DNA of 64,000 nucleotides from an uncultured bacterium. GTDB taxonomy: Bacteria > Omnitrophota > Omnitrophia > Omnitrophales > Aquincolibacteriaceae. Positions 2,265 through 43,547 of the stretch are shown one piece after another. The first letter of the stretch is position 1; the number at the start of each line of letters is the position of its first letter. A model generated the notes under the pieces. That model saw only the letters and a program-made list of their open reading frames with translations. It was not told the origin of the DNA and did not search any database. Position numbers and translations under genes: made by a program. The stretch is taken from positions 194-64,193 of the forward strand of contig CAYJSI010000004.1 in assembly GCA_964373045.1 (NCBI GenBank), given 5' to 3'.

Positions 2265-3520
2265 TGAAAACCGCACCGGAAACAACAAGTCTTCTCAAAA
2301 ATCTGGCCCTTGAAATGGGATTTGATGTCGTAGGCGTGACGGTTCCCAAGGCGCTTCGCGAGGGCGAAGAAGCGATTCGCGCCTGGACGGAGGAAAAACG
2401 GCACGGCACCATGAAATATCTGGAGGATTTTGAAGCGCGCAGAAACCGTTTTTATCAAGATTTTCCGGATGCAAAAAGTGTGATTGTGCTCGGAGTGAAT
2501 TATTATTCGAACGAGAGGATAACACGTCATCCTGAGGAGTTTCGCCGCAGGCGAGACGACGAAGGATCTCGAGATTCTTCGTCCCGCAGCAGCGGGACTC
2601 AGAATGACGTTTACGGCCGTGTGGCGAGGTATGCGTGGGGCAAGGACTATCATCAGGTGATCCGGAAGAAGCATGAATTGTTGATTGAAAGGTTGAATGA
2701 AATATTTGTAAGGGCGAGGCAGGCCGTGCCCTTACGATTTCAGTCGTGCGTGGATACCCAGCCCCTCCCTGAGCGATTTGCCGCCAAGCAGGCCGGACTC
2801 GGCTTTATCGGAAAACATACGGGACTTTTAAGCCAAAAATTCGGGCCCTGGCTTTTTCTCTCGGAAATTGTGACCAATCTCGAACTCGAAGAAGATATGC
2901 CCTCTGAAGGAAATTGTGGAACATGCGTTCATTGTCAAAAAATTTGTCCGACCGGTGCGTTAGATGAGGATTACAAAATCGATGCAAAAAAATGCATTGC
3001 CTATCTTACGATCGAACACAAAGGAGTCATTGCGCGCGAGCTTCGTCCCAAGATCAAAAACTGGCTTTTTGGGTGTGACGAGTGCCTTGCGATCTGCCCT
3101 TTTACCTCCAAACAAAAAGAGGGAAGCTGGCCGGAACTCAAGGCCTCGGCCGGCTTCGGGGAATGGATCGATTTAAAAGAACTTTTCGAGATTCCATCCA
3201 ACGCCGCTTACGAACGAAAATTTTTTGGCACAGCGCTCATGCGTGTAAGCCGTAAGCAAATGCTTCGCAATGCCTGCCTTGTGCTCGGCAATATTGGCAG
3301 AGAAAATCCTGTAGGGGCGAGGCAGGCCGTGCCCTTACTTATGAAAGCCCTCAGGGATCCCGCTTCGCTTGTACGGCTTCACGCCGCCTGGGCGCTCGGC
3401 CAGCTTCCCTTTGAGGAGGCCAAAAAGGCCCTCAAGCGACACCAGCCCCTCGAAGAAGACACCGAGGTTTTAAGAGAGATCCGATCTTCTCTCACGCAGG
3501 CGTGCACAGTCATCCCATAA
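2264..3520 (+). CDS. queG: epoxyqueuosine reductase QueG (B12/4Fe-4S), with low-complexity and repeat-derived insertions
   Basis: The ATG overlaps the nth stop (TAATG). Ferredoxin-type motif CGTCVHCQKICPTGAL plus a second Cys cluster. HEAT-like C-terminus (LRDPASLVRLHAAWALGQL). It is longer than typical QueG because of RRRRDDEGSRDSSS and two copies of a 28-nt palindrome. Confidence 0.8.
   Translation: MKTAPETTSLLKNLALEMGFDVVGVTVPKALREGEEAIRAWTEEKRHGTMKYLEDFEARRNRFYQDFPDAKSVIVLGVNYYSNERITRHPEEFRRRRDDEGSRDSSSRSSGTQNDVYGRVARYAWGKDYHQVIRKKHELLIERLNEIFVRARQAVPLRFQSCVDTQPLPERFAAKQAGLGFIGKHTGLLSQKFGPWLFLSEIVTNLELEEDMPSEGNCGTCVHCQKICPTGALDEDYKIDAKKCIAYLTIEHKGVIARELRPKIKNWLFGCDECLAICPFTSKQKEGSWPELKASAGFGEWIDLKELFEIPSNAAYERKFFGTALMRVSRKQMLRNACLVLGNIGRENPVGARQAVPLLMKALRDPASLVRLHAAWALGQLPFEEAKKALKRHQPLEEDTEVLREIRSSLTQACTVIP
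2708..2735. repeat. GTAAGGGCGAGGCAGGCCGTGCCCTTAC hairpin element inside queG (copy 1)
   Basis: The 8-bp inverted repeat GTAAGGGC/GCCCTTAC is read directly. A near-identical copy lies at 3311-3338. It is translated in-frame as RARQAVPL. Confidence 0.7.
3311..3338. repeat. GTAGGGGCGAGGCAGGCCGTGCCCTTAC hairpin element inside queG (copy 2)
   Basis: 27 of 28 nt match 2708-2735. It is translated in-frame as GARQAVPL. Confidence 0.7.
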
Positions 3521-4368: not shown

Positions 4369-4584
4369 ATGGAGAAAAGAGAAAAACTTATGCCCGGCAG
4401 AAAGACGCAAAATAAAGAAAAGACTTCAAATGGCGCCAACCTCGGATTTGAGGAAAAGCTTTGGAAAACAGCCGATAAACTCCGCAACAATATGGATGCT
4501 GCGGAATACAAGCATGTGGTGCTGGGTCTTATTTTCCTGAAATACATCTCAGATGCCGAGGTCTTAAACGAGATCCCATTCTAG
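4369..4584 (+). pseudogene. hsdM: N-terminal remnant of a type I restriction-modification methyltransferase HsdM
   Basis: [39 protein letters not shown] is the characteristic HsdM N-terminal helix. The ORF stops after 71 aa and nothing HsdM-like follows downstream. Confidence 0.55.
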
Positions 4585-4690
4585 ACAAAACTGTAGGGAA
4601 TATTGTATAGTACGCTCCCCTTAAGAGATGTGGATGGCATTATCCCTCCGCGGCTCACGGAATAGACCTAAGATACGGAGAATGCTGAAG

Positions 4691-5020
4691 ATGAGTAAGG
4701 AGAAAGTTGTTACGGACAGCAGTTTTAAAAGCGAGGTACTGGACTCCAAGACCCCTGTTTTGGTGGATTTTTGGGCGGAGTGGTGCGGCCCCTGCCGCAT
4801 GCTGGCCCCGGTGGTGGCCCGAATTGCCGAAGCCAACGACGGCAAGATCATTGTCGGTAAAATGAATGTGGATGACAATCAGGAAACGCCCCAGCGCTAC
4901 GGCATTCAAGGCATCCCGACCCTTCTTTTCTTCAAAGGCGGGGAGTTGGTTCAGCAAGTGGTGGGATTTCAATCGCAGGAGAATATTCAGCGTATCATTG
5001 ATGACATTATCGGTGCTTAA
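4691..5020 (+). CDS. trxA: thioredoxin
   Basis: WCGPC active site and FKGG motif. 109 aa from the internal ATG (MSKEKVV). The ORF extension upstream is unlikely to be real. Confidence 0.9.
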   Translation: MSKEKVVTDSSFKSEVLDSKTPVLVDFWAEWCGPCRMLAPVVARIAEANDGKIIVGKMNVDDNQETPQRYGIQGIPTLLFFKGGELVQQVVGFQSQENIQRIIDDIIGA

Positions 5021-5789
5021 CCCTAAACCTCTCACTCCTTTACAAGATGGCGCTGTCTACGGCCCCATTCGTTCCAGGCGCCTCGGATCATCGCTTGGAA
5101 TCAATCCGCTTCCCGTCAGTTACAAATTTTGCGATTTTGACTGCGTCTACTGTCAATATGGCTGGACGCCCGAAAAAGGAACGGGGGAAAAGTTAAAACG
5201 AGCTGCCGAACTTCTGGAAGAAATTGAACGCGCCTTTATCCATCACAAGCGGGTCGGAACGCCGGTCGATTGCATTACCATCGCAGGCAACGGCGAACCC
5301 ACCCTTCATCCCGAATTTCTAACATTAGTCGAGGGCCTGCTCAGTTTGCGGGATCAATTTTATCCCAAGGTCAAAATCGGTGTTCTCTCGGACTCCTCGC
5401 AGGCGCACCGGCCCGAAATTAAAGAGGCCCTTGTGATGTTAGATGAGCGTTACATGAAGCTCGATGCCGGCCACCGCGAACTTCACGAAAAAATCAATAA
5501 GCCGCGCGGGAATTTTGATTTTGAGCGCATGGTCAACGCCCTTCACTCGTTCCGTGATATCGTGATCCAAAGCCTCTTTATGCACGGGATTTACGATAAC
5601 ACCCATCGCGAAGACTTGGATCATTGGGTCGAGGTGCTTGGATTTATCCTGCCGCGTGAAGTACAGGTGTATACCGTGGACCGGGGTCCGGCGGATCCCT
5701 CGGTGACGGAAGTGAGCGCGGAAGAATTAAAAAAAATTGCGGAACTTTGTCAATCTATGACGGGAATCCCATCGCTCGTTTTTGAATAA
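5001..5789 (+). CDS. radical SAM protein (function unknown)
   Basis: CDFDCVYCQYG is a CxxxCxxC SAM-cluster motif. The start is uncertain; I take the first ATG, which overlaps the trx 3' end. Confidence 0.65.
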   Translation: MTLSVLNPKPLTPLQDGAVYGPIRSRRLGSSLGINPLPVSYKFCDFDCVYCQYGWTPEKGTGEKLKRAAELLEEIERAFIHHKRVGTPVDCITIAGNGEPTLHPEFLTLVEGLLSLRDQFYPKVKIGVLSDSSQAHRPEIKEALVMLDERYMKLDAGHRELHEKINKPRGNFDFERMVNALHSFRDIVIQSLFMHGIYDNTHREDLDHWVEVLGFILPREVQVYTVDRGPADPSVTEVSAEELKKIAELCQSMTGIPSLVFE

Positions 5790-5802
5790 TTGGAGGATTC
5801 GA

Positions 5803-6852
5803 ATGAATATCACGGAAGGAAAACTTAAGAAACTGGAAGCCTTGTCGGACTCACGCGGTATTATCCGGGCGGCGGCGATGGATCAGCGCGGTTCTTTAAG
5901 GAAGGCCATTGCCAAGGAAAAGGGCGTGGAAGCCAAAGAGGTGACGCGGGCCATGATGGAAGAATTCAAAGTGGCCGTAAGTAAAGTCCTCACACCTCAC
6001 GCAAGCGCCATTCTTCTTGACCCGGAATACGGACTTCCTGCAGCCAAGGCACGAAGCAAAAACGCCGGCCTCTTGCTCGCCTATGAATCGAGCGGCTATG
6101 ACAACACACGCCCGGGGAGAATTCCCGATCTCTTGGAAAATGAGACGGTGCGCACGATTAAAGAGGCGGGCGCGGATGCGATCAAGGTATTGATTTACTA
6201 CACGCCCCTTGATAAAAAAGAAGTGAATGACATCAAGCACGTTTTTACGGAGCGGATCGGCGCCGAATGCGCTGACCGCGATATTCCGTTCTTCCTCGAA
6301 TTTGTCGGCTACGATCCAAACGAAGGGGATGTGAATACGCTCGAATATGCCAAGCGCAAGCCCGAGGTCGTGGCAAAAAGCATGCAGGAATTTTCCAAGC
6401 CGGAGTATCAAGTGGATATCCTCAAGGTTGAAATCCCCATCAATATGAAATTCGTCGAAGGCGCGAAATCCTTTAAAGGGCAGAAGGCCTACACGAAAAA
6501 GGAAGCGATTAAGTATTTTCAGGAAACGGCGAAGGTCACGAAGAAACCCTTCATTTATTTGAGCGCGGGTGTGAGCGACGATGAATTCCGCGAGAGCCTT
6601 GAACTTGCGGCCGAGGCCGGCGTGAAATATAACGGGGTTCTTTGCGGACGCGCAACCTGGAAAGATGGGATACCCGTTTACGCCAGACAAGGTGTCAAGG
6701 CCCTTGAAAGTTGGCTCAAGGATCAGGGTGTTAAAAATATTCAGGCTTTGAACGCGGTGCTCGAGAAAAGCGCAAACCCCTGGTATGACGTCTACGGCGG
6801 GAAAAGCAACGTCAAACCCGTCGCAACAAAACGGCAAGCCGTTGGTGCTTGA
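5803..6852 (+). CDS. class I aldolase of the tagatose-1,6-bisphosphate aldolase (LacD/DeoC-like) family
   Basis: MDQRGSL ... LLDPEYG and the lysine-containing KVEIP region resemble LacD. The ATG at 5803 has an upstream GGAGG. Confidence 0.55.
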   Translation: MNITEGKLKKLEALSDSRGIIRAAAMDQRGSLRKAIAKEKGVEAKEVTRAMMEEFKVAVSKVLTPHASAILLDPEYGLPAAKARSKNAGLLLAYESSGYDNTRPGRIPDLLENETVRTIKEAGADAIKVLIYYTPLDKKEVNDIKHVFTERIGAECADRDIPFFLEFVGYDPNEGDVNTLEYAKRKPEVVAKSMQEFSKPEYQVDILKVEIPINMKFVEGAKSFKGQKAYTKKEAIKYFQETAKVTKKPFIYLSAGVSDDEFRESLELAAEAGVKYNGVLCGRATWKDGIPVYARQGVKALESWLKDQGVKNIQALNAVLEKSANPWYDVYGGKSNVKPVATKRQAVGA

Positions 6853-6855
6853 AAT

Positions 6856-6883
6856 GTAGGGGCGACTCGCGAGTCGCCCGTAC
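6856..6883. repeat. GTAGGGGC-family palindromic element (short form)
   Basis: GTAGGGGCGACTCGCGAGTCGCCCGTAC is a near-perfect hairpin in the spacer before the AKR gene. Confidence 0.7.
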
Positions 6884-6890
6884 TACCGCC

Positions 6891-7859
6891 ATGAAACACC
6901 GCATTCTCGGGAAAACGGGTCTTCGGGTTTCCGAAGTCGGTTTTGGCGCCTGGGCGATCGGGGGAACAAGCTATGGTCCCACCCGCGATGAAGATTCGCT
7001 CGATGCCCTCGAGGCCGCCTGGGAATCCGGGGTTAACTTTTTTGATACGGCCGATACCTACGGCCACGGTCACAGCGAAACTCTTCTCAGCCGTTTCCTA
7101 AAAAATAAACCGCGCCATCAAACCATCATCGCTTCAAAGGTGGGCTGGGATTTTTATCACGGCGCCAGCCGCAAAAATTTCGATCTCACTTATGTGCGTT
7201 TTGCGCTTGAGCAAAGCCTGAAGCGACTTGAACTTGAGACGATCGATCTTTATCAGCTTCACAACCCTTCGATTGAATTGATTAAGCGGGGTGAGCTCGT
7301 CGGCCTGCTTGAGGAGTTCAAAAGGGAAGGGAAGATCCGTTTCATCGGAACGTCCATCCATAGCAAAGACGAGGCCTTTGCCGCGATGGAGGATCCGCGG
7401 GTGGATACGCTTCAACTTGTCTTCAATCTCCTCGATCAGCGTATGGCCGAAGAGGTATTTCCTGAAGCTCAAGCGAAAAATATCGGCCTGATCGTGCGCG
7501 AACCCTTGGCCTTCGGCATGCTTACGGGCAAATACACGGCGGATCACGAGTTTCACAAAATAGATCACAGGCGCCGCTTCATGCGGGAGCAGCTGGAGAA
7601 CGATCTTAAAAAAATTGAAGCCGTCAAAGGTGTTTTATCAACGAAACATTTGCCGCTTGTGCGGGCAGCGCTTGAGTTTATTTTGAATTTTTATTCCCTT
7701 TCCACTGTGATCCCCGGCGCTAAATCAAGGGCTCAAGTGCTGGAGAATGTTCAGGCATCGAATGATCCGAAACTTCGGATGGAGGAATTGCGGCGTTTGA
7801 GGGAACTTTATTTGAAAGAACCGATTTTTCGGGAAATATTAAAATTTAAAATAATGTAG
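6891..7859 (+). CDS. aldo/keto reductase
   Basis: ILGKTGLRVSEVGFGAWAIGG and DTADTYGHGHSE are AKR signatures. Confidence 0.85.
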   Translation: MKHRILGKTGLRVSEVGFGAWAIGGTSYGPTRDEDSLDALEAAWESGVNFFDTADTYGHGHSETLLSRFLKNKPRHQTIIASKVGWDFYHGASRKNFDLTYVRFALEQSLKRLELETIDLYQLHNPSIELIKRGELVGLLEEFKREGKIRFIGTSIHSKDEAFAAMEDPRVDTLQLVFNLLDQRMAEEVFPEAQAKNIGLIVREPLAFGMLTGKYTADHEFHKIDHRRRFMREQLENDLKKIEAVKGVLSTKHLPLVRAALEFILNFYSLSTVIPGAKSRAQVLENVQASNDPKLRMEELRRLRELYLKEPIFREILKFKIM

Positions 7860-7918
7860 GGGCGCACCCGTGTGTGCGCCCTACGGATAGACGGGCAGAT
7901 ACATGGGTCTGCCCCTAC
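7856..7918. repeat. GTAGGGGC-family palindromic element (full two-hairpin form)
   Basis: GTAGGGGCGCACCCGTGTGTGCGCCCTAC followed by GGATAGACGGGCAGATACATGGGTCTGCCCCTAC. The outer ends are inverted (GTAGGGG/CCCCTAC). Confidence 0.75.
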
Positions 7919-7945
7919 AATTCACAACCGAGGTTTTGTCAAAAT

Positions 7946-9142
7946 ATGAAACACATCGTCATTGTTCCGGATGGTTTGGGGGATTGGCCGGTTGCTGAGC
8001 TCGGCAATAAAACACCGCTTGAGGCCGCCCACATTCCTCATCTTCATGCCCTTGCCAAAAAATATATACAGGGGACGCTGCGGACAACCCCTGAAGGGAT
8101 GTATCCGGGAAGCGACGTGTGCGGGCTCAGCCTCATGGGTTATGATCCGAAGGTCTGCTACACCGGCCGCGCACCGCTTGAAGCCGCTAATTTAAGTTTA
8201 GTGCTTGGGCCGGGCGAGCTTGCCTTCCGGACGAATCTTGTGAATGTGGAAAACGGCGTCCTCGCGGACTATAGCGCCGATCATGTAACAACCGAGGAAG
8301 CAGCCATCCTCATCCAGACGATTCAAAAGGAACTCGGGACGAAGGACATTCAGTTTTATCCCGGCAAGATGTACCGGCATATCATGATCTCTAGAAAACC
8401 TCTGACCTTTGACGTGAAGACGGATCAGCCGCATGATTTTCAGGGGGAGCCTTATGCCCAACACTTGCCGCGCGGCAAGGGAGCAGAAATCTTAATCGAT
8501 CTTACGGAAAAATCAAAAGCCGTGCTTGAAAATCACCCCGTCAATATTGAACGGGCAAGACGGGGGAAAAAGAAGGCCAATATGATTTGGTTTTGGGGCG
8601 GCGGCGGCGCGCCCAAGCTTGAGCGATTCGAAAAAAAATTCGGGGTGAAGGGCGGCGTGATTTCTGCCGTCGATCTTTTAAATGGTTTGGGCCGCTATCT
8701 CGGATGGGAAATTATATCGGTTCCCGGCGCCACGGGTTATTTTGACACGGATTACAGGGCGAAAGGGGAGTATGCCGTCAAGGCCCTGGAGCGCCTCGAC
8801 CTTGTGTTTGTGCATATCGAAGCGACGGACGAGGCGGGCCACTTAGGACTCGCCAAAGAAAAAGTGAAGGCCATCGAGGAAATCGACCGCCATGTGGTGG
8901 GCCCTCTCGTCAAACACACAAGCCGGTTAAAAGAGTGGCGCCTTTTCGTGGCCCCCGACCATTACACGCCGACGGCTAAAAAGACCCATGTGGGAGATCC
9001 CGTTCCCTTCATTTTTGCGGGTTCCGATGTGGCACGATCATCCCATTTGCCGTATACTGAAAAGGCCGCCGAGTCGACGGGTATCTATGTGGACCCCGGG
9101 CATGATCTCATGCGCCGGCTGATTCAAGGCTGGAATTATTAG
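7946..9142 (+). CDS. apgM: 2,3-bisphosphoglycerate-independent phosphoglycerate mutase, archaeal type
   Basis: VIVPDGLGD and HIEATDEAGH are metalloenzyme-superfamily motifs. Overall length and layout fit ApgM. Confidence 0.8.
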   Translation: MKHIVIVPDGLGDWPVAELGNKTPLEAAHIPHLHALAKKYIQGTLRTTPEGMYPGSDVCGLSLMGYDPKVCYTGRAPLEAANLSLVLGPGELAFRTNLVNVENGVLADYSADHVTTEEAAILIQTIQKELGTKDIQFYPGKMYRHIMISRKPLTFDVKTDQPHDFQGEPYAQHLPRGKGAEILIDLTEKSKAVLENHPVNIERARRGKKKANMIWFWGGGGAPKLERFEKKFGVKGGVISAVDLLNGLGRYLGWEIISVPGATGYFDTDYRAKGEYAVKALERLDLVFVHIEATDEAGHLGLAKEKVKAIEEIDRHVVGPLVKHTSRLKEWRLFVAPDHYTPTAKKTHVGDPVPFIFAGSDVARSSHLPYTEKAAESTGIYVDPGHDLMRRLIQGWNY

Positions 9143-9152
9143 GAGGATCTCA

Positions 9153-9554
9153 ATGGCAACGCTTACTTTGTTTCAGAAGAAAAAAGCAGCATCTCCCCGG
9201 GAAGGAAACGAGCGCTCCGAGCTCAGGCTTCCCATCCATGGATTTACGGTGGAGTTTAAACGCGGAAAAATTTTCAAGTGGATTGTAAGGGGAGAAGTCC
9301 GCGATCTTTCCATCCACGGGGTTCACTTTGTGACCTCAAAGAGATTTGCGCGGGGAAATCGTGTGAATCTCACCCTTTGCTTTCCTGAGGAGTTTCCGGG
9401 TCCGAAGAGATTGATGCTGGATGCCAAGGTGGTGCGGGTCATACGGCCGGAAGGGGCACGTGAATGGCGAGTGGCCTGCTGTCTTAGACATCCCGATGAT
9501 GCCACCCGAGAAACCATTCGGCAGTATTTGTGGTGGTATGAAACCCTTTCTTAA
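9153..9554 (+). CDS. PilZ-domain protein (c-di-GMP receptor)
   Basis: RxxxR (RSELR) and D-x-S-x-x-G (DLSIHG) motifs with appropriate spacing. Confidence 0.6.
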   Translation: MATLTLFQKKKAASPREGNERSELRLPIHGFTVEFKRGKIFKWIVRGEVRDLSIHGVHFVTSKRFARGNRVNLTLCFPEEFPGPKRLMLDAKVVRVIRPEGAREWRVACCLRHPDDATRETIRQYLWWYETLS

Positions 9555-9559
9555 AACTT

Positions 9560-10714
9560 ATGAATCTAACGCCTGAACAACTCACGCGCTACAGCCGCCA
9601 CTTCATCCTTCCTGAAATCGGGGAAGAGGGGCAGAAAAAACTCCTCAAGGCCAAGGTCTTATTGATCGGGGCCGGCGGGCTTGGCTCGCCCCTCGGGCTT
9701 TACCTTGCCGCCTCGGGTGTGGGGACGCTCGGGATTGTCGATTTTGACAATGTCGATCTTTCAAACCTCCAGCGCCAGATCCTTCACACCAATGATGAGA
9801 TCGGAAAGCCAAAAATCGATTCGGCCGAGAAACGCATCAAGGCCATGAATCCGGATACAAGGGTTGTGAAGTATCCGGTGCGCCTCGCCTCTGACAATGC
9901 GCTCGATATCCTGAAAGATTACGATATTGTGATTGACGGCACGGACAACTTTCCGACCCGCTATCTTACAAACGATGCCTGCGTTTTTTTAAAAAAACCC
10001 AATCTCTACGGCTCGATCTTCCGTTTTGATGGCCTCGCGACTGTTTTTTCCGCCGGAGGTCCTTGCTACCGGTGTCTTTATCCCGAGCCGCCTCCTCCCG
10101 GAATGGTCCCAAGCTGTGCCGAAGGGGGAGTGCTCGGAATTCTGCCGGGTGTGATTGGTCTTATCCAGGCCACGGAAGCGATCAAGCTGATTGTAGGGAT
10201 CGGCACGCCGCTCATTGGGCGTCTGCTTGTCTACGATGCCCTGCAGATGACCTTTCGCGAGCTTAAGATCCGCAAGGATCCGAATTGTCCCGTGTGCGGA
10301 AAAAACCCCACGGTTACAAAATTAATCGATTATGAAGTTTTCTGCGGTCTGGGACGGGGCGGGCAGGAAAACTCGGCCTCTGAAAATGGCGTGGCTGAAA
10401 TATCTGTCGAAGAGCTTAAGAAAAAGCTGGATCGCAAGGAAGATATTGTTTTCCTGGATGTTCGCGAAAACTTTGAATATCAAATCGCCAAAATCCCCGG
10501 GACAAAGCTCATTCCGCTGGGGCAGCTCCCAAATCACCTGGGCGAACTTGAGTCCTGCAAGGATAAAGAGGTGATTGCCCACTGCCATCACGGGGGCCGC
10601 AGCCGCCAAGCCCTTGAGTTTCTGAAGTCCAAGGGCTTCAAGAAACTCCGCAATGTCACAGGCGGTATCGACGAGTGGTCCCTTAAAGTCGATTCCTCCG
10701 TCCCCCGCTATTAG
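9560..10714 (+). CDS. ThiF/MoeB-family adenylyltransferase fused to a C-terminal rhodanese domain (MoeZ-like sulfur-carrier-protein activating enzyme)
   Basis: GAGGLGS nucleotide loop. CxxC ... CPVCG zinc motif. C-terminal rhodanese with active Cys (AHCHHGGRS). Confidence 0.85.
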   Translation: MNLTPEQLTRYSRHFILPEIGEEGQKKLLKAKVLLIGAGGLGSPLGLYLAASGVGTLGIVDFDNVDLSNLQRQILHTNDEIGKPKIDSAEKRIKAMNPDTRVVKYPVRLASDNALDILKDYDIVIDGTDNFPTRYLTNDACVFLKKPNLYGSIFRFDGLATVFSAGGPCYRCLYPEPPPPGMVPSCAEGGVLGILPGVIGLIQATEAIKLIVGIGTPLIGRLLVYDALQMTFRELKIRKDPNCPVCGKNPTVTKLIDYEVFCGLGRGGQENSASENGVAEISVEELKKKLDRKEDIVFLDVRENFEYQIAKIPGTKLIPLGQLPNHLGELESCKDKEVIAHCHHGGRSRQALEFLKSKGFKKLRNVTGGIDEWSLKVDSSVPRY

Positions 10715-23528: not shown

Positions 23529-24752
23529 CTAAGGGTGCCTGGCACCTTTGGCTTTGGCGCCAGGCGCCTTTTGACTTAATAGCAGCACGATCGATCCCGC
23601 GGCTGCAGGAAAAACGAGTACCCGAAGGGCCGTAGGAAATCCCGCCTGATCGGCTACCACTGAAAAGATAAGGCTTCCCACCACGGAAACTTTGGTCGTA
23701 AGCCCGTAAAGCCCGAAGTATTCCCCCAGCCGGTCCGGCTCAACTAATTCGACGAGTGCTTTTCTTCCTGCCGTCCAAATGCCGGCAATGGCAAACGCCC
23801 CTGCGCTCAAGGTGATGGCCACAAATCCAGCGAAACTCGAAACCAAGGAAAGAGAGCCCAGCGTTAGGACCAAGAGAAATCCCGACAGAGTCAAAGTTTT
23901 TATCGCGCCCCACCGATCGGTGATCACGCCTGCGAGAAGACCGGCAAGAAAGGCAGCCGCATTTAAGGCGATCAGAAAACCGATCAAGAGATTCTGACCA
24001 GGGTGAAAAACCTCCCGCGCATAAACGGAGATCCAAAAAATAGCGCTATTTAAAGCGTCCACCACGAAAAAATTCCCCCCCAGAAAAAGAAGCAGCCTCG
24101 GCCGTTCGGAAAGTGAATAAATTGTTTTTGTTAATTTCTTCCATTCCCCTCGCCATGAAATTCGCTCAGGCACCCGCGGTCTGGAAAGAGGTCGTTCCGG
24201 CACCCAAAAAAAGAGGGGAAGGGAAAAAATAAAAAAAAGCAGGGCTCCCCCCAGAAAAACTTGCGATCTTCCAAAGGTCTGATCAACGGTATGGGCAATG
24301 GGAAGCGCGAAGACAACCCCAAGATAGCCGAGTCCTGTCCCCAGCCCCGAGGCGAATCCCTGCTTTTCGGGAGGCGCAACGACCACGAGAAGTGAATTAT
24401 AAAACACAAGCGAGGCGTGGTAGAAAAAACACGCCACAATAAAAATCATGATCAAAATTAAAGGCATGCGTGAAGCGGAGAGGAGGGCCATAAAACCGAT
24501 GCAAATAAGAGTGGATCGCAGGAGGTATTTTTTTGTTTTCCCGGTTTGATCGCTCAAGGCGCCGAAAAAGGGTATGGCAAGCCCCGCCAGGATCATGGCC
24601 GAGGTCGTGGCCGCACCCAGATACCAGTTGGCCCCTGTGAGCTCGGTTAAGTAAAGGGGGAAGTAGGCCGTTAGCACGACGGCAGAAAAAATGGTATTGG
24701 CAAAATCGTAAAGGGCCCAACTGGTGAGGGATAAGCGGGTGGGAGTTGTCAC
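23529..24752 (-). CDS. MFS transporter
   Basis: A 12-TM hydropathy profile is inferred from the sequence. Confidence 0.75.
   Translation of the reverse strand: MTTPTRLSLTSWALYDFANTIFSAVVLTAYFPLYLTELTGANWYLGAATTSAMILAGLAIPFFGALSDQTGKTKKYLLRSTLICIGFMALLSASRMPLILIMIFIVACFFYHASLVFYNSLLVVVAPPEKQGFASGLGTGLGYLGVVFALPIAHTVDQTFGRSQVFLGGALLFFIFSLPLFFWVPERPLSRPRVPERISWRGEWKKLTKTIYSLSERPRLLLFLGGNFFVVDALNSAIFWISVYAREVFHPGQNLLIGFLIALNAAAFLAGLLAGVITDRWGAIKTLTLSGFLLVLTLGSLSLVSSFAGFVAITLSAGAFAIAGIWTAGRKALVELVEPDRLGEYFGLYGLTTKVSVVGSLIFSVVADQAGFPTALRVLVFPAAAGSIVLLLSQKAPGAKAKGARHP
23533..23568. repeat. GGTGCCWGGCACC-family palindromes between convergent grx and the MFS gene (bidirectional terminator-like)
   Basis: GGGTGCCTGGCACC ... 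GGCGCCAGGCGCC. Confidence 0.7.
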
Positions 24753-24901: not shown

Positions 24902-25336
24902 GTGATGAATACGAATCCCAAAAAATTATATGCGAATCTGTGCGAAAAAGAAAAGGGTTTCACTTTGGTCGAAACGCTCGTCACGATTCTTGTGGTGGCG
25001 ACCGCGCTTCTGTCTTCGCTCATTGCGAGCACGGCGATTCAGAGAACGGCAGAAAGTATTCATGACCGCGCCGTGGCCATTCAAGATGCCAATCAAGTCG
25101 TGGAGCAAATGAGAAACACGGCCTTGACGGGAACATTTCCGGGTAATGTGACGGCGGCGTTTCCGGATGGGGCAGAGGTGGCCGGGTTTGACGATCTGAC
25201 CTATGAGGTGGTGACGGTTGATTTTGTGGACTCGAATGCCAATCCACTCGATGTGACAGTCACTGTTGCGTGGACCGACAACACGAATCGGGCCGTCACG
25301 CAGACACTCAGAACTCTCGTGACTCAAAGGACCTAA
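24902..25336 (+). CDS. type IV pilin-like minor pilin / pseudopilin (prepilin N-methylation motif)
   Basis: KGFTLVETLVTILVVA: G|FTLVE cleavage site with Glu+5. Confidence 0.8.
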   Translation: MMNTNPKKLYANLCEKEKGFTLVETLVTILVVATALLSSLIASTAIQRTAESIHDRAVAIQDANQVVEQMRNTALTGTFPGNVTAAFPDGAEVAGFDDLTYEVVTVDFVDSNANPLDVTVTVAWTDNTNRAVTQTLRTLVTQRT

Positions 25337-25337
25337 C

Positions 25338-25940
25338 ATGCAAAGAAACGAGCAAGGGTTTACCCTTCTTGAAGTGGTGGTGGCCGTGGCCATATCGTCT
25401 GTGATCTCTTACGCCCTTTTTCTTGCGCTTCGCATGGGGGATGAACAGATCCGAACCACGGACCTGAAAATGACGATTCAGGATTCCATGCGCGAGGGTC
25501 TTTACAAAATGATTCAGGAGATCCGCCAGTCGGCGCCCGGCAAAGTGAATATTGATTCCTCCGGCAACAGCATCTCCTTTTCTATACCGGACCCGAACAA
25601 TGCAGTCGGAGACGATTACAGCGCGAACTGGGACGATGCCATCCAAGTCTCTTATGCCTTAGGAGGAGACGACGGCAATCAAATCATGCGAACGGTGTCC
25701 AATGACGTAACCACGAAGGTGATGGCCAATGATGTGACGGGCGTAACGTTCGCGGGCAATGCCGGCAATCCGACGCTCGTGACCCTTACCATGAATGTTC
25801 AGCGGACGCTAACCAACGGGCGGCTTGTTCCGAGTACGCCCCTGCAGATGACGGGGCAGGCCGAGGTTCGAAATGTCTCCAATGTTGACGATTGCACTGA
25901 TGATGACAACGATAACGTTTGTGACGAGAATGAAACCTAA
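25338..25940 (+). CDS. type IV minor pilin (PilW/PilV-like)
   Basis: QGFTLLEVVVAVAISS is a class III signal. Confidence 0.8.
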   Translation: MQRNEQGFTLLEVVVAVAISSVISYALFLALRMGDEQIRTTDLKMTIQDSMREGLYKMIQEIRQSAPGKVNIDSSGNSISFSIPDPNNAVGDDYSANWDDAIQVSYALGGDDGNQIMRTVSNDVTTKVMANDVTGVTFAGNAGNPTLVTLTMNVQRTLTNGRLVPSTPLQMTGQAEVRNVSNVDDCTDDDNDNVCDENET

Positions 25941-25953
25941 GGGGGAGAAAAGA

Positions 25954-27156
25954 ATGATTCCATCAAAAGAGATGAAAGGTGTTTTAGGGAACCGGAAAGG
26001 ATTCATTTTACTTACGAGCTATCTCTTAATTTCGATGCTCTCCATTTTTTCTCTCGGGCTTTTTGCCAGGAGCGCGGCCTTTATTCAATCGGTCGAGCGA
26101 AATAAAAATAAGATCATCGCCTTCCAAAAAGCCGAGGCGGGGCTCGATCAAGCGATCGTAGAACTCACAGACGACCAAAACTATTCAGGGATGGCTTACA
26201 TCCCGCTGGGAGACGAGGGAGGCTACAGCGTTACGGTTTGTCCGCCGACCTGCGGGGGTGATCTCACCGAGCCGACGGATGCCAATGTACGTATGATTCA
26301 AACCACGGGTTTTGCTCCTGACAATGACCCAACCTCCACGGCCTATAGCAGCCGTTCCGTGATTTCTCATGTCAATGTAGCAGGCTCCTCGGGTTTCGAT
26401 TTTGCTATCTTTGCCGGAGATGATATCTCCATGAGCGGGAACGCAGTGGTTGATAGTTACAACTCTGACGAGGGTGCTTACAATGCAGCCACGGCGTACG
26501 ATAACGGAAATATCGGAACGGATAGCACAACGGCTGATACTGTGTCGTTATCAGGGAATGTCGCAGTGAATGGGGATGTGACCGTGGGCCCGAATGGAAA
26601 CCCCAGCAGCGTTGTCACGACCACTGGCAATGCTGTCATCTCCGGAACGGGGTCATCCGCGACCCAAGCTAAAAACTACCAGCTGATCGGAAGCAGCGAT
26701 ACCTCCCTTGGCGCCCTTAGTTTAAGCGGGAATACGAATTATGTCTTGCCCACAGGAAGCTACCGCTACAGCTCCTTAAAAATTAGCGGAAACGCTAAAC
26801 TGACGACCACCGGGGCGGTCAAGATTTATGTGGATGGCACCATCAGCATTTCGGGAAATGGTGTTTCTACGGCCAGCAACAAGCCGTCTAATTTCCTGCT
26901 CTATTCCACGGCCGGTGCGAGTGTCAGCTTATCAGGCAACGGAAATTTTTATGGGGCTGTTTACGCGCCCGAGTCTGATGTGAGCATCTCCGGAAACGGG
27001 CAGACTTACGGTGCGGTGGTTTCCGAAACCTATTCGCAAACCGGAAACGGTAAAGTCCATTTTGATGAATCTTTGAACGATTTAGAAGGCGCCACAGACA
27101 GCAATAGCACGCCCAATCTGCTTGCCTGGCGGGAGACGAATACGGCGGCTGCTTAG
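25954..27156 (+). CDS. PilX-like minor pilin with a Gly/Asn/Ser-rich beta-solenoid-like C-terminal domain (paralog A)
   Basis: PilX_N-like signature KGFILLTSYLL ... RNKNKIIAFQKAEAGLDQAI. The repeats are SGNxxxxGAVYAP. RBS GGGGGAG. Confidence 0.7.
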   Translation: MIPSKEMKGVLGNRKGFILLTSYLLISMLSIFSLGLFARSAAFIQSVERNKNKIIAFQKAEAGLDQAIVELTDDQNYSGMAYIPLGDEGGYSVTVCPPTCGGDLTEPTDANVRMIQTTGFAPDNDPTSTAYSSRSVISHVNVAGSSGFDFAIFAGDDISMSGNAVVDSYNSDEGAYNAATAYDNGNIGTDSTTADTVSLSGNVAVNGDVTVGPNGNPSSVVTTTGNAVISGTGSSATQAKNYQLIGSSDTSLGALSLSGNTNYVLPTGSYRYSSLKISGNAKLTTTGAVKIYVDGTISISGNGVSTASNKPSNFLLYSTAGASVSLSGNGNFYGAVYAPESDVSISGNGQTYGAVVSETYSQTGNGKVHFDESLNDLEGATDSNSTPNLLAWRETNTAAA

Positions 27157-27174
27157 GGGGAGCGGGAGGGTGAA

Positions 27175-28374
27175 GTGATGAACGACATGACAGGAAAAAA
27201 GATAACCCGCGCGGGCCAGAAGGGATTTATCCTGCTCACAAGTTATCTTTTAATCTCCATGATTTCCATTTTTTCTCTCGGGCTTTTTGCCAGGAGCGCG
27301 GCCTTTATTCAATCGGTCGAGCGAAATAAAAATAAGATCATCGCCTTCCAAAAAGCCGAGGCGGGGCTCGATCAAGCGATCGTAGAACTCACAGACGACC
27401 AAAACTATTCAGGGATGGCTTACATCCCGCTGGGAGACGAGGGAGGCTACAGCGTTACGGTTTGTCCGCCGACCTGCGGGGGTGATCTCACCGAGCCGAC
27501 GGATGCCAATGTACGTATGATTCAAACCACGGGTTTTGCTCCTGACAATGACCCAACCTCCACGGCCTATAGCAGCCGTTCCGTGATTTCTCATGTGAAT
27601 ATCGCCGGTTCTTCGGGTTTTGACTTTGCTGTTTTTGCCGGAGACAGCGTTACCTTGAACGGGACCACCTCTATCGATAGTTACAATTCCAACGACGGGC
27701 CTTACGGCGCAAACACGGCCTCAGCGAATGGCGATGTTGGAACGGATAGCGTGACCACTTCCACCGTGAGCTTGAACGGAAGTTCGACCATCAATGGCGA
27801 TGTGACGGTGGGCCCCAGCGGCAATCCAACGGATGTCATCTCCGCTTCGAGCCAATCGCTCATTACGGGCTCTCAAACGTCGGCATCCACCGAAAAAAAT
27901 TATCAGGTGATGACAAGCAGCAGCACTTCGCTTGGATCCCTTTCGGTTTCAGGGAGCACGAAGCTTACTTTGGCGGCCGGAACCTACCGCTACAGCTCGC
28001 TTAAGATTACGGGAAACGCTAAAATAACAACAACGGGTGCGGTCAAAATTTATGTCGACGGCACGGTGAATATCGGCGGAGGAGGCATTGTGAATGCGAC
28101 CGCGACACCAAGCAACCTGCTTGTTTACGCAACGACGAGCGCCAGCGTCAGCGTTTCCGGGAACAGCGATTTTTACGGGGCCGTTTACGCCCCCGCCTCG
28201 GCCGTAAGCGTTTCCGGGGCCTCTGATTTCTACGGGGCCGTGGTGGCAGACTCCTTTACTCAAAGCGGTGAATTCCATTACGATGAGGCCTTAAACGATT
28301 TAGAAGGCGCCACAGACAGCAATAGCACGCCCAATCTGCTTGCCTGGCGGGAGACGAATACCTCGGCCGCGTAA
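27175..28374 (+). CDS. PilX-like minor pilin (paralog B)
   Basis: Same architecture as paralog A. 332 nt at the 5' end and 68 nt at the 3' end are identical to paralog A. Confidence 0.7.
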   Translation: MMNDMTGKKITRAGQKGFILLTSYLLISMISIFSLGLFARSAAFIQSVERNKNKIIAFQKAEAGLDQAIVELTDDQNYSGMAYIPLGDEGGYSVTVCPPTCGGDLTEPTDANVRMIQTTGFAPDNDPTSTAYSSRSVISHVNIAGSSGFDFAVFAGDSVTLNGTTSIDSYNSNDGPYGANTASANGDVGTDSVTTSTVSLNGSSTINGDVTVGPSGNPTDVISASSQSLITGSQTSASTEKNYQVMTSSSTSLGSLSVSGSTKLTLAAGTYRYSSLKITGNAKITTTGAVKIYVDGTVNIGGGGIVNATATPSNLLVYATTSASVSVSGNSDFYGAVYAPASAVSVSGASDFYGAVVADSFTQSGEFHYDEALNDLEGATDSNSTPNLLAWRETNTSAA

Positions 28375-29222: not shown

Positions 29223-29290
29223 TACCGTGTTCACAAACTTAATGCAATTTGGGTCTGACCCCCTCGGTTTTGGGTGGAGTCAAAAGAGAC

Positions 29291-29692
29291 ATGTTTAGGA
29301 TTACACGTGAAATAAATTTTAGTTACGCGCACCGCCTGATCCACTATCAGGGAAAGTGCGCCAATCTTCATGGCCACAATGCCCGCGTGCTCGTAGAAGT
29401 TTCAAGCGAGAAATTAAATCACCAGGGCATGGTCATGGATTTTTGTGAGATCCGGGAAGTGGTGGAAAAATGGATCAATCAAAACCTGGATCATAAAACC
29501 ATTTTATGTGCGGACGATCCTCTCACGGAGGTTCTGCAAAAGTCAGGGGAGCCCATTGTCGTGATCAAGGAAAATCCGACGGCAGAAGTGCTCGCCAAGT
29601 GGATTTTTGAAGAGGCCAGAAAGGCGCGGCTTCCCGTTTCGCGGGTGACGTTGTGGGAGACAGAAGATAGTGCCGCTACGTATCACGAATGA
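29291..29692 (+). CDS. queD: 6-carboxy-5,6,7,8-tetrahydropterin synthase / 6-pyruvoyl-tetrahydropterin synthase (QueD-like)
   Basis: Zinc-binding His residues are present, along with the CxxxHGH motif (KCANLHGH). Confidence 0.8.
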   Translation: MFRITREINFSYAHRLIHYQGKCANLHGHNARVLVEVSSEKLNHQGMVMDFCEIREVVEKWINQNLDHKTILCADDPLTEVLQKSGEPIVVIKENPTAEVLAKWIFEEARKARLPVSRVTLWETEDSAATYHE

Positions 29693-29720
29693 AATGTAGC
29701 TTAAAAAGCTTCAGGCAAAT

Positions 29721-29757
29721 GGTGCCAGGCACGGTGCCAGGCACCGTGCCTGGCACC
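29721..29757. repeat. GGTGCCWGGCACC tandem palindrome element
   Basis: GGTGCCAGGCACGGTGCCAGGCACCGTGCCTGGCACCATTAGG, between queD and addB. Confidence 0.8.
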
Positions 29758-29767
29758 ATTAGGTTCT

Positions 29768-41220: not shown

Positions 41221-42357
41221 ATGAATTTATCCGATTTTGATTTTAAACTTCCCGAAGGGCGTATCGCGGTTTTCCCGCCCGAAGATCGAGCCAGCGCCCG
41301 TCTCCTCAGAGTCGACAAACAGTCAGGAACTATTTCGCACCACGTTTTCCGCGACCTTCCTCAATTTCTTCAAGCCGGAGATCTGCTTGTGCTGAATGAT
41401 ACGAAAGTGATTCCCGCAAGAATTTTCGGCCAAAAAGAGACCGGAGGCCGGGTGGAGGCCCTCCTCCTTGAGGATTTGGGAGAAGGGAAGTGGGAAGCCT
41501 TGCTCCGTTCCGGAGGACGAATTAAAAAAAATTCGATGCTCGCTTTTGGAGAAAACGGCCTGAGGGTTGAGGCCGAGGTTTTAGATGACGCAAGGCCGGA
41601 TTCAGGGGAACGCCTTTTGGATTTCAATGTAGGGGCCGATCTGCGCCCGCCCACCGGCGAGGCGGGTGTCGGCCCGCATACGGGCGGACACATGGGTCCG
41701 TCCCTACGACAAATTTTTAAAAAAATCGGGCATATACCCCTGCCGCCCTACATCGACCGCCCGGATTCTCCGATCGATCGGAAAATGTACCAAACGGTTT
41801 TTGCTGAAAAAGAGGGGGCGGTAGCATCGCCCACCGCCGGTCTTCATTTTGATGAAAAACTTCTCGATAAGATTCGAGCCAAAGGAATCGAAATAGCTTT
41901 TGTCACACTTCACGTCAGTTACGGGACGTTTCAGCCCATTGCAGTCGAAAATTTAGCCGAGCACAAAATGTTTGAAGAACGATTTGAAATCACTGCCGAA
42001 ACTGCCGGCCAAATCAACCGTGCCTTGAGCGAAAAGCGGCGAATCATTGCTTGCGGGACTACGGTGGTAAGGGTATTAGAGTCTGCCTGTAGGGGCGCGG
42101 TCCCCGCGCCCGGGACTCAGGGCGGGGGAACTTTACCCCTGCAACCCATGAAGGGCAGGACCCGGCTTTTTATTTATCCTCCCTATGAATTTAAAATCGT
42201 GCAGGGGCTGATTACCAATTTTCATCTGCCCAAAAGTTCTCTTCTGCTTTTGGTGAGCGCGTTCTTGGGCCGCCAAAAATTATTAAATGCCTATGACGAA
42301 GCGATCCGTGAAGGATATCGTTTTTATAGTTACGGGGATGCGATGGTGATCTTGTGA
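41221..42357 (+). CDS. queA: S-adenosylmethionine:tRNA ribosyltransferase-isomerase QueA, carrying two in-frame palindromic-element insertions
   Basis: Collinear with E. coli QueA (GHIPLPPYIDRPD, TAGLHFDE, TNFHLP, YRFYSYGDAM). It is about 25-30 aa longer, with the extra residues at 41629-41707 and 42089-42146. Confidence 0.9.
   Translation: MNLSDFDFKLPEGRIAVFPPEDRASARLLRVDKQSGTISHHVFRDLPQFLQAGDLLVLNDTKVIPARIFGQKETGGRVEALLLEDLGEGKWEALLRSGGRIKKNSMLAFGENGLRVEAEVLDDARPDSGERLLDFNVGADLRPPTGEAGVGPHTGGHMGPSLRQIFKKIGHIPLPPYIDRPDSPIDRKMYQTVFAEKEGAVASPTAGLHFDEKLLDKIRAKGIEIAFVTLHVSYGTFQPIAVENLAEHKMFEERFEITAETAGQINRALSEKRRIIACGTTVVRVLESACRGAVPAPGTQGGGTLPLQPMKGRTRLFIYPPYEFKIVQGLITNFHLPKSSLLLLVSAFLGRQKLLNAYDEAIREGYRFYSYGDAMVIL
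41629..41707. repeat. GTAGGGGC-family palindromic element inside queA
   Basis: GTAGGGGCCGATCTGCGCCCGCCCACCGGCGAGGCGGGTGTCGGCCCGCATACGGGCGGACACATGGGTCCGTCCCTAC. Confidence 0.75.
42089..42146. repeat. GTAGGGGC-family palindromic element inside queA (second copy)
   Basis: GTAGGGGCGCGGTCCCCGCGCCC ... CCCCTGCAAC; the end type matches the element at 11812. Confidence 0.65.
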
Positions 42358-43547
42358 AAGTTGAACAAGAAAGACGAGGAAAGAAAGACGATGGACGAAT
42401 CAAGGAGGCGCTCCTCGTCTCTCGTCCGTCATCCTTCGCTTTTTCCATTACCGCTCACGATGCCCACACATCCGCCCGTATCGGCGTGATCAAAACCGCA
42501 CACGGGGTTTTCGAAACCCCTGTTTTCATGCCGGTCGGAACCCAGGGGACCGTGAAGGCCTTGACGCCGCGCGATCTTTTGGACGCGGGCTCCACGATCA
42601 TCCTAGCCAATGCCTATCACCTTTACATTCGACCCGGAATCGATATAATCCGTCAATTCGGCGGCCTGCACCGCTTCATGGGATGGCCCGGCCCCATCTT
42701 GACGGATAGCGGCGGCTATCAGGTTTTTTCTTTGAGCCGCCTCAGGAAAATTTCAGAAGAGGGTGTTCGGTTTCATTCCCATTTTGACGGCCGAGAGATC
42801 TTTCTCAGCCCTGAAAAAGTGATCGAGATTCAGGAAGCCATTGCCAGCGACATCGCCATGGCGTTTGACGAATGTCCGCCGCCGACGCGGGACCGCAAAA
42901 AAATTAAAGAGTCTCTCGAATTAACGCTCCGTTGGTCGAGGCGGGCAAAAAAATGCCACAGGCTTAAAACGCAGGCCTTGTTCGGTATTGTGCAGGGAGG
43001 CATTTTTCCGGATCTACGCCGCGAATCACTCGAGCGAACGGTGGAAATCGGTTTTGACGGCTATGCCTTGGGCGGGCTTTGCGTGGGGGAAGATAAAAAA
43101 GAAACTCTCGAAGTTTTAGACGCGGTTCTGCCCCTTATGCCGAAAGAAGCTCCCCGCTATCTTATGGGGGTGGGAACACCGCTTGATTTTCTCGAGGCTG
43201 TGGAGCGCGGCGCCGATCTGTTTGATTGCGTCAATCCCACTCGCTACGGAAGAACGGGGAGTGCCTTTAGCGCGGAAGGTTTGGTCGTGGTTCGCAATGC
43301 CAAATATCAGAAAGACGAAGACCCAATCGCTCAGGATTGCGGCTGTTACACCTGCCGCCATTTTTCCAGAAGTTACCTCCGCCACCTTTTCAATACGGAG
43401 GAGATGCTGGGTCCGCAGCTTGTTTCGCTGCATAATATCCATTTCTTTGTGAATTTTTTGAAAACGATTCGCGAGAAAATTCTGGACGGCAGCTTTCTTA
43501 AATTTAAAAAGGATTTTTTCAACCAGTTTGACCCGGAAGGCCGGTAA
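42354..43547 (+). CDS. tgt: queuine tRNA-ribosyltransferase
   Basis: FMPVGT and LTDSGG motifs. Zn site CxCxxC ... H. GTG start overlapping the queA stop. Confidence 0.9.
   Translation: MKVEQERRGKKDDGRIKEALLVSRPSSFAFSITAHDAHTSARIGVIKTAHGVFETPVFMPVGTQGTVKALTPRDLLDAGSTIILANAYHLYIRPGIDIIRQFGGLHRFMGWPGPILTDSGGYQVFSLSRLRKISEEGVRFHSHFDGREIFLSPEKVIEIQEAIASDIAMAFDECPPPTRDRKKIKESLELTLRWSRRAKKCHRLKTQALFGIVQGGIFPDLRRESLERTVEIGFDGYALGGLCVGEDKKETLEVLDAVLPLMPKEAPRYLMGVGTPLDFLEAVERGADLFDCVNPTRYGRTGSAFSAEGLVVVRNAKYQKDEDPIAQDCGCYTCRHFSRSYLRHLFNTEEMLGPQLVSLHNIHFFVNFLKTIREKILDGSFLKFKKDFFNQFDPEGR

Follow-up and report, generated by a model that had tools for sequence, protein, structure and literature searches.

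Two neighbouring genes, here called A and B, in an uncultured bacterium of the phylum Omnitrophota (GTDB family Aquincolibacteriaceae) are identical to the last nucleotide in two separate blocks and strongly diverged outside them, and the question that this locus raises is how such a mosaic arose and what it says about the encoded proteins. The window that we analysed is a stretch of 64,000 nucleotides (nt) of assembly GCA_964373045.1 (contig CAYJSI010000004.1, positions 194 to 64,193 of the forward strand), and coordinates count from its first nucleotide except where a related locus is named. As judged from sequence features, the locus is best explained as a four-gene minor-pilin operon among housekeeping genes, in which a PilV-like and a PilW-like gene are followed by A and B as two tandem tip pilins of the PilX/ComZ type. 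We consider it likely that these old tandem paralogues have undergone recent intragenomic gene conversion in two tracts limited to the pilin fold; the pilus tip would then have two different caps to choose from, both with one docking surface. The segments of the two genes on which the argument turns are the following (aa, amino acids).

25954–27156, + strand: gene A, putative PilX/ComZ-type tip minor pilin of 400 aa, predicted pilin fold with an inserted beta-solenoid, Thr at +5 in place of Glu
26041–26372, + strand: R1 copy in A, a 332-nt exact repeat encoding aa 30–140
26373–27075, + strand: diverged core of A (end of strand 4, linker and the entire predicted beta-solenoid), 62% nt and ~58% aa identity to B
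27076–27143, + strand: R2 copy in A, a 68-nt exact repeat encoding aa 375–397
27157–27177, + strand: A–B intergenic junction as read from the sequence, 21 nt of unique sequence that holds the ribosome-binding site (RBS) gggagg for B
27178–28374, + strand: gene B, paralogue with gene A's architecture, 398 aa
27265–27596, + strand: R1 copy in B, identical to 26041–26372 at 332/332 nt
27597–28293, + strand: diverged core of B (predicted beta-solenoid)
28294–28361, + strand: R2 copy in B, identical to 27076–27143 at 68/68 nt

In good agreement with an earlier, sequence-only reading of this DNA, the repeat coordinates and the 100% identity of both blocks hold in full (332/332 and 68/68 nt), and the match goes far past what chance would give. 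Outside the blocks the identity of A and B drops at once: it is 66% over the 56 nt upstream of R1, 62% over the core (26373–27030), 67% over the 33 nt before R2, 62% over the 13 nt after R2, and 38% in the leader codons. The same reading had put the 56 upstream nucleotides at about 75%; that figure is too high, and the boundary is at least as sharp as was claimed. In sliding Nei-Gojobori (NG86) comparisons the synonymous divergence (dS) is zero inside R1 and ~1–2 or saturated outside it, with a nonsynonymous divergence (dN) of 0.3–0.5. When the genes are partitioned, the proportion of synonymous differences (pS) is 0.05 in the pilin module versus ~0.71 (saturated) in the core, where the nonsynonymous proportion (pN) is 0.28. 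Synonymous saturation between A and B covers the solenoid, the leader together with the first half of alpha1, and the last codons. A single recent tandem duplication is rejected, as leader, junction and tail have diverged no less than the core has. The two R1 copies also contain identical 61-aa antisense open reading frames (ORFs; 26185–26370 and 27409–27594, both on the − strand), a mechanical consequence of the repeat and not evidence for a gene.

Could purifying selection on a shared docking surface have produced this without any recombination? The pilin module must fit the same partners, and the codons that flank R1 are indeed the same in amino acid but not in nucleotide sequence: in the 14 codons 5′ of R1 the amino acid is the same in 13 and the codon differs in 10, and in the 17 codons 3′ of R1 the corresponding counts are 15 and 9. 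Since flanking codons for the same amino acid still differ synonymously, purifying selection alone does not yield nucleotide identity in this gene pair. Within R1 and R2 there is no difference over ~133 codons, neither synonymous nor otherwise, next to neighbouring conserved codons that are synonymously saturated, and this pattern requires recent recombination. Furthermore, R2 includes the linker, which is the least conserved segment of the family. Selection without recombination is refuted by the synonymous-site pattern, and we give it practically no weight; the recent gene conversion or recombination with sharp boundaries that had been proposed for the locus is borne out by the same pattern at the block edges.

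Identity of this kind could also be made by an assembler, either through collapse or consensus of paralogue segments that are similar but not identical, or through a chimera of strain variants. The contig does come from a metagenome assembly, a 332-nt exact repeat is longer than common k-mer sizes, a second assembly of the organism was not found, and a scan of metagenome contigs with protein A for other strains returned no relatives. Against this stands the unique stretch 27144–27264, which connects the last codons of one gene with the RBS and the first codons of the following one, so that two tandem genes must exist and the tandem arrangement is not a product of repeat collapse. Moreover, assemblers never merge sequences that are ~65% identical, and a collapse would need blocks that were near-identical beforehand. 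The ORFs of A and B are unbroken and co-linear, the locus is even in base composition, and independent assemblies also show tandem copies with raised pilin-module similarity. We regard an assembly origin of the identity as highly improbable.

The two genes stand directly behind two further minor-pilin genes, and this setting bears on what A and B are.

24902–25336, + strand: minor pilin 1 (PilV/GspI-like, 144 aa), prepilin motif KG-FTLVE, Glu5 present
25338–25940, + strand: minor pilin 2 (PilW/GspJ-like, 200 aa), prepilin motif QG-FTLLE, Glu5 present

The first matches Pfam N_methyl with an E-value (E) of 7e-5 and has weak NCBIfam N-terminal matches to PilV, GspI and ComGE; the second matches N_methyl with E 8e-8 and has weak NCBIfam N-terminal matches to PRK10557 and GspJ. 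Two prepilin-type minor pilins (GFTLVE and GFTLLE) upstream of the tandem paralogues are therefore confirmed, as the sequence-only reading had it. All four genes (24902–28374) are co-directional, with short gaps or none. For gene A we take the ATG at 25954, behind the RBS agggggag at 25940–25947; the NCBI call is the ATG at 25972 (394 aa), and the upstream ATG has the better Shine-Dalgarno sequence and a leader length like that of B. Gene B starts with the ATG at 27178 behind gggagg, with an alternative GTG at 27175 that would give 399 aa. Promoter and terminator scans of the locus gave results at chance level.

A and B match Pfam family DUF7305 (PF23981; A: E 6e-21, 75.6 bits; B: E 6e-23, 82.2 bits; gathering cut-off 27), as do 40 of 40 homologues, and pAdhesive_15, an adhesive domain of ice-binding-like type (PF20597; A: E 3.5e-6, 27.6 bits; B: E 2.5e-8, 34.6 bits; gathering cut-off 23.8). 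Neither matches N_methyl. Gene A has the leader ...NRKG-FILLTSYLLISMLSIF and gene B the leader ...GQKG-FILLTSYLLISMISIF, which is class III signal peptide-like, and both N-termini follow the pattern ...KG-FILLTSYLLISM..., that is, a short basic leader ending in Gly(−1) and then the hydrophobic alpha1N of ~20 aa; G16 is nearly invariant across the family. The mature N-terminus of both proteins is F-I-L-L-T, with Thr at position 5 and hence no Glu5, in contrast to the upstream pilins (FTLVE, FTLLE). Absence of Glu5 marks the terminal GspK/PilX subunit (bioRxiv 10.64898/2026.02.12.705559). Some sources label homologues ‘Tfp pilus assembly protein PilX’, and PilX_N matches 4 of the 40 aligned homologues (best E 6.9e-13).

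AlphaFold2 models of A and B, built on the 40-sequence alignment, are confident, with a predicted local distance difference test score (pLDDT) of 87.9 and 88.2, respectively, and have the same secondary-structure layout: a helix at 14–73, four long strands at 79–141, a beta-solenoid at ~152–371, then a short helix with a low-confidence linker, and a long strand at 388–395. The prediction, run for both proteins, thus agrees with the earlier proposal that the core is a beta-solenoid. In Foldseek searches against the PDB the top match for both is ComZ (6QVI; A: E 2.9e-6; B: E 6.7e-7), followed by DUF3494 ice-binding proteins such as FfIBP. Taking the sequence features and the models together, A and B are best described as PilX/ComZ-type tip minor pilins. 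Each would consist of a class III signal peptide and a hydrophobic alpha1 without Glu5, a small pilin beta-sheet, and a triangular beta-solenoid of ~220 aa that precedes the final strand. The term PilX-like, which had been applied to both genes from the start, holds for their role, given the missing Glu5, the gene order, the four homologues with PilX_N and ComZ as top structural match; it does not hold for the domain, since A and B themselves lack a PilX_N match and are tied to that family by transitive homology only.

Both proteins carry a two-cysteine motif, CPPTC, at aa 96–100 (26239–26253 and 27463–27477) within a ~17-aa insertion in the pilin module. The motif occurs in only a subset of the family (P0003, P0006-8, P0010, P0028 and P0040; alignment A1, columns ~175–200) and may give the docking module a disulfide-bonded loop.

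How do the repeats map onto the predicted fold? R1 (aa 30–140) covers the remainder of alpha1 and the four strands of the pilin sheet and stops where strand 4 ends, R2 (aa 375–397) covers the post-solenoid linker and the last beta-strand (LLAWRETN, strand 388–395), and the diverged segment between them is the solenoid. By analogy with the topology of ComZ and cyanobacterial PilX, the last strand would complete the N-terminal pilin sheet. If that topology holds, R1 and R2 jointly encode the pilin fold and the divergent block is an inserted domain. Recent work in Neisseria lends this weight: there, the C-terminal plug of the adhesin supplies the last strand of the PilK sheet (bioRxiv 10.64898/2026.09.18.752573), which shows how critical to function it is for a sheet and its last strand to fit; because sheet and terminal strand must match, R1 and R2 would be kept alike together.

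The related loci, cited by labels such as L001, put the pair into the context of a large family, with 5,126 cluster representatives (50% identity) at E ≤ 1e-3 and 1,916 at E ≤ 1e-10. Close relatives of A and B come mainly from metagenome-assembled genomes of Omnitrophota, and B aside, the protein closest to A is 54% identical. The order small pilin, second pilin, PilX-like gene is kept in L001, and our gene-order check of 18 related loci met it in most of them; about ten related loci (L001, L002, L004–L007, L013–L015 and L029) carry two or three PilX-like genes in tandem. Long exact repeats are absent from these tandem-copy loci, in which the longest exact matches are 20–79 nt. The 58% identity of the A and B cores falls within the range of tandem paralogues in other genomes (43–59%).

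A module-specific signal is seen in these loci. The median ratio of pilin-module to core identity is 1.22 within genomes versus 0.80 between genomes (Mann-Whitney p = 1.3e-7; our window excluded). In neighbour-joining trees of the pilin module the copies of one genome group together, as they do not in trees of the core (bootstrap values 98 versus 0 in L005, 98 versus 37 in L002, 81 versus 0 in L001); on the core the copies fall into paralogue lineages that span genomes. In two loci pS is lowered in the pilin module only (0.48 in L014 and 0.58 in L004, versus 0.72–0.79 in the core). Four related loci, L003, L004, L009 and L014, are ~85% identical over the locus (about 6850–10500) and unequal in copy number: L014 has two intact copies, copy 2 of L004 is frameshifted (ORFs 9191–9667 and 9445–10431), and a single copy is present in L003 and L009. 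Over the region homologous to R1, the second L014 copy has a pilin module (9352–9614) that is 82–84% identical in nt to the copy-1 modules of the related genomes (8071–8333). Concerted evolution of the docking module alone therefore looks, on these sequence comparisons, like a property of the family, of which the window would be the most recent instance.

Two further observations concern individual related loci. The last-strand segment is exactly identical between tandem paralogues in L005 (7923–7957 = 9118–9152) and in L007 (6711–6736 = 9108–9133), over 26–35 nt; with synonymous sites saturated elsewhere, these 3′ identities could be small R2-like conversion tracts or could reflect strong local constraint. 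In L001 a second minor-pilin set lies directly downstream (4522–7098), with ORFs of 145 aa and 209 aa (N_methyl) and then one of 497 aa. The last scores only 38 bits against the hidden Markov model of the family and has no Pfam match, and it possibly represents a third PilX-like protein that has diverged very far.

The family comparison also bears on the proposal of the sequence-only reading that the exposed core is hypervariable and under diversifying selection, with the identical flanks serving as recombination arms for cassette swapping and the whole supporting antigenic or adhesin variation similar to that of pilE/pilS. The layout of identical ends around a divergent middle invites such a view, the solenoid is probably exposed at the tip by analogy with ComZ, and copy number differs among related genomes. 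The core itself behaves otherwise. Pairwise dN/dS is below 1 throughout (dN 0.3–0.5 against saturated dS), and between genomes the core is the best-conserved part of the protein, with 46% identity versus 38% for the pilin module and 32% for the C-terminal segment (582 pairs). On both counts positive selection on the core is rejected, and it follows that the anomaly lies in the ends, the core differences being old, ordinary divergence. Core types correspond to paralogue lineages common to several genomes, A and B are complete genes each with its own RBS, and searches of the 64-kb window with blastn and tblastn found no silent or partial copies of either, by which a pilS-like cassette system is likewise rejected. 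Nor does the operon contain tandem or simple-sequence repeats that could support phase variation; its sole simple repeat is an A7 homopolymer in gene B (27893–27899, codons E-K-N), too short for this purpose. Neither the diversifying selection nor the variation device that had been suggested is supported by these results, and cassette swapping is in our judgement very unlikely.

The same end state, identical arms around a foreign-looking core, could also have been reached by another route, through a recent long conversion or duplication spanning 26041–27143 and a subsequent replacement of one solenoid by the divergent allele of another strain, with crossovers in R1 and R2. Omnitrophota do encode type IV pili (PMC10066038), and such pili can mediate DNA uptake in other bacteria (PMC6561018; bioRxiv 10.64898/2026.02.12.705559). 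This history needs two events plus an external donor and is less parsimonious. The closest relative of the A core is the B core and vice versa (sisters in 44/50 and 86/100 bootstraps); a foreign donor is not needed to account for them. Base composition shows no anomaly, and the databases contain no donor-like sequence, the nearest homologue being 54% identical. We consider import of a core unlikely.

The reading that we prefer remains gene conversion between two old paralogues that was limited to their docking module, and the events behind it would be as follows. A and B would be old paralogues with saturated synonymous sites outside R1 and R2. Non-reciprocal recombination would then, very recently, have homogenised the segments of the pilin fold (alpha1C with the four strands, and the linker with the last strand) in two short tracts, one of 332 nt and one of 68 nt. 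Divergence of the solenoids probably blocks heteroduplex extension, loss of one solenoid type is probably selected against, and the sharp ends of the tracts would result from the two together. As a consequence, the PilV/PilW partners that both proteins share, and the filament, would meet one and the same docking surface on either protein, and two solenoid surfaces would cap the pilus, so that two tip specificities would be available on one priming complex. This picture presumes that both genes are expressed and that their products are located at the tip and function in adhesion; that they are two alternative tip adhesins is plausible.

Several points weigh against this interpretation. The exact identity of the blocks may be slightly overstated through consensus or bubble merging in metagenome assembly, and the pairing of each 29-codon leader with its core across the 332-nt repeat depends on how read pairs or long reads resolve it. 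Saturation of pS in the pilin module is also the rule in most other genomes, where old conversion is inseparable from co-adaptation at the protein level. As to the protein class, A and B lack a match to Pfam PilX_N (PF14341), also when their first 149 aa are searched with a cut-off of E ≤ 10; pLDDT around the last strand is only 65–75; global TM-scores to ComZ are low, at 0.2–0.3; and a profile built from 40 family members finds no ComZ match at E ≤ 1 among all PDB sequences, returning only chance-level matches to the beta-helix repeats of T4 gp5. Finally, the 64-kb window holds no pilB/C/M-Q, tad, gsp or type II secretion system (T2SS) machinery, which bears on the type of filament (type IVa pilus, T4aP, or another type IV filament); pilMNOPQ or tad loci, by which the sequence-only reading had proposed to assign the pilus system, are hence missing from the window, and around the related locus L007 a search for pilus-system genes found only housekeeping genes.

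The two direct repeats might also be more than a trace of past conversion. It is conceivable, though we think it improbable, that the 332-nt and 68-nt repeats act as a RecA-dependent switch of copy number and tip type. If this were the case, frequent deletion, duplication or exchange between the repeats would give rise to subpopulations with solenoid A, solenoid B, both, or amplified arrays on one invariant priming complex—that is, a heritable and reversible change of pilus targets in an ultra-small, possibly host-dependent bacterium. The pattern seen in the family, with pilin modules made alike within each genome, solenoid types that recur from genome to genome and a copy number of one to three, would then be the long-term trace of such a switch.

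Comparison with known systems places the proposed tip pilins among several relatives in design. ComZ of Thermus thermophilus (PDB 6QVI) has been argued to fit only at the pilus tip (PMC6561018). Like ComZ, A and B are missed by standard pilin predictors, are predicted to combine a GspK-like pilin fold with a large triangular beta-solenoid resembling ice-binding proteins, are encoded beside minor pilins and can be proposed to cap the tip. They differ from ComZ in having no detectable sequence similarity to it (and TM-scores of only 0.2–0.3) and in the size of the solenoid, which in ComZ is longer (~380 aa versus ~220 aa) and more irregular. ComZ is, moreover, the product of a single gene tied to DNA uptake, whereas A and B form a tandem pair. 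All cyanobacterial PilX proteins are reported in a 2026 preprint to have a ComZ-like architecture and are proposed tip subunits (bioRxiv 10.64898/2026.02.12.705559), and PilX1-3, PilX-Com and PilX-EPS (HpsA-like) resemble the present case in that there are several paralogues per genome. The cyanobacterial paralogues are dispersed, each with particular PilV subfamily partners, giving different pilus types (bioRxiv 10.64898/2026.02.12.705559); A and B are instead adjacent, behind one PilV/PilW pair and with an identical pilin module, and the likeness is one of architecture.

GspK and PilX (PilK) share with A and B the position after I/J-like (V/W-like) minor pilins, the lack of Glu5, the capping role, and a long alpha1 with a beta-sheet head that carries an extra domain; in GspK this insert is alpha-helical and occupies another site. 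The PilX of Proteobacteria, a small protein, recruits PilY1/PilC as a separate adhesin, and the PilK sheet is augmented by the C-terminal strand of this partner (bioRxiv 10.64898/2026.09.18.752573), while in A and B one polypeptide includes both the adhesin-like domain and the last strand.

As for the genetics, a close parallel is found in babA/babB/babC of Helicobacter pylori, in which the 5′ and 3′ parts are nearly identical, the middle is divergent and intragenomic gene conversion is at work (PMC4552749). In these adhesins the divergent middle is thought to set specificity, and conversion maintains and reshuffles the pattern (PMC4552749). The bab genes, unlike A and B, encode outer-membrane proteins at dispersed loci, with phase variation through CT repeats and documented chimeras; A and B are tandem and lack such repeats, and no chimeras were observed in the one strain at hand. 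Neisseria pilE/pilS is similar in that gene conversion acts on pilus genes with conserved and variable segments. There, a single expressed major pilin receives sequence from numerous silent cassettes that are partial and lack promoters, whereas here we see two complete minor-pilin genes, no silent copies in the window, and conversion of the conserved rather than of the variable part.

The remainder of the 64-kb window consists of housekeeping genes, among them those for IspH, AddAB-like proteins, queuosine genes, SecDF, RecJ and an H+-PPase. Nearly all genes of the window lie on the + strand, with the exception of a major facilitator superfamily (MFS) transporter (23529–24752). Queuosine-related genes (QueG-like, PTPS/QueD-like, QueA and Tgt) are spread over 2243–3520, 29249–29692 and 41221–43547. 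Between the PTPS/QueD-like gene and an addB-like gene there is a perfect palindrome of 21+21 nt (29718–29760; AATGGTGCCAGGCACGGTGCC / GGCACCGTGCCTGGCACCATT) with 1 nt between its arms.

The protein class to which A and B belong is already known from ComZ, cyanobacterial PilX and Pfam DUF7305, mosaic adhesin paralogues are known too, and the locus is otherwise an ordinary instance of paralogues in tandem that have undergone partial gene conversion. A full-text literature search for DUF7305 found no papers, and a search on minor pilins together with gene conversion and paralogues found nothing relevant. A solenoid-bearing tip pilin with conversion tracts that match its split pilin fold appears to be unreported, as does module-specific homogenisation that recurs across Omnitrophota.

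In this reading, recombination marks out the unit of a PilX/ComZ-type protein that behaves as one, namely alpha1C, the four-strand sheet and the distant last strand, and leaves the solenoid free to differ, a pattern that agrees with the recent view that the sheet of the tip subunit needs a matching terminal strand. The prediction is that both paralogues dock identically on the same PilV/PilW pair and bind different targets. Since the pili of Omnitrophota are suspected to take part in host attachment, the tandem solenoid pilins are candidate determinants of its specificity.

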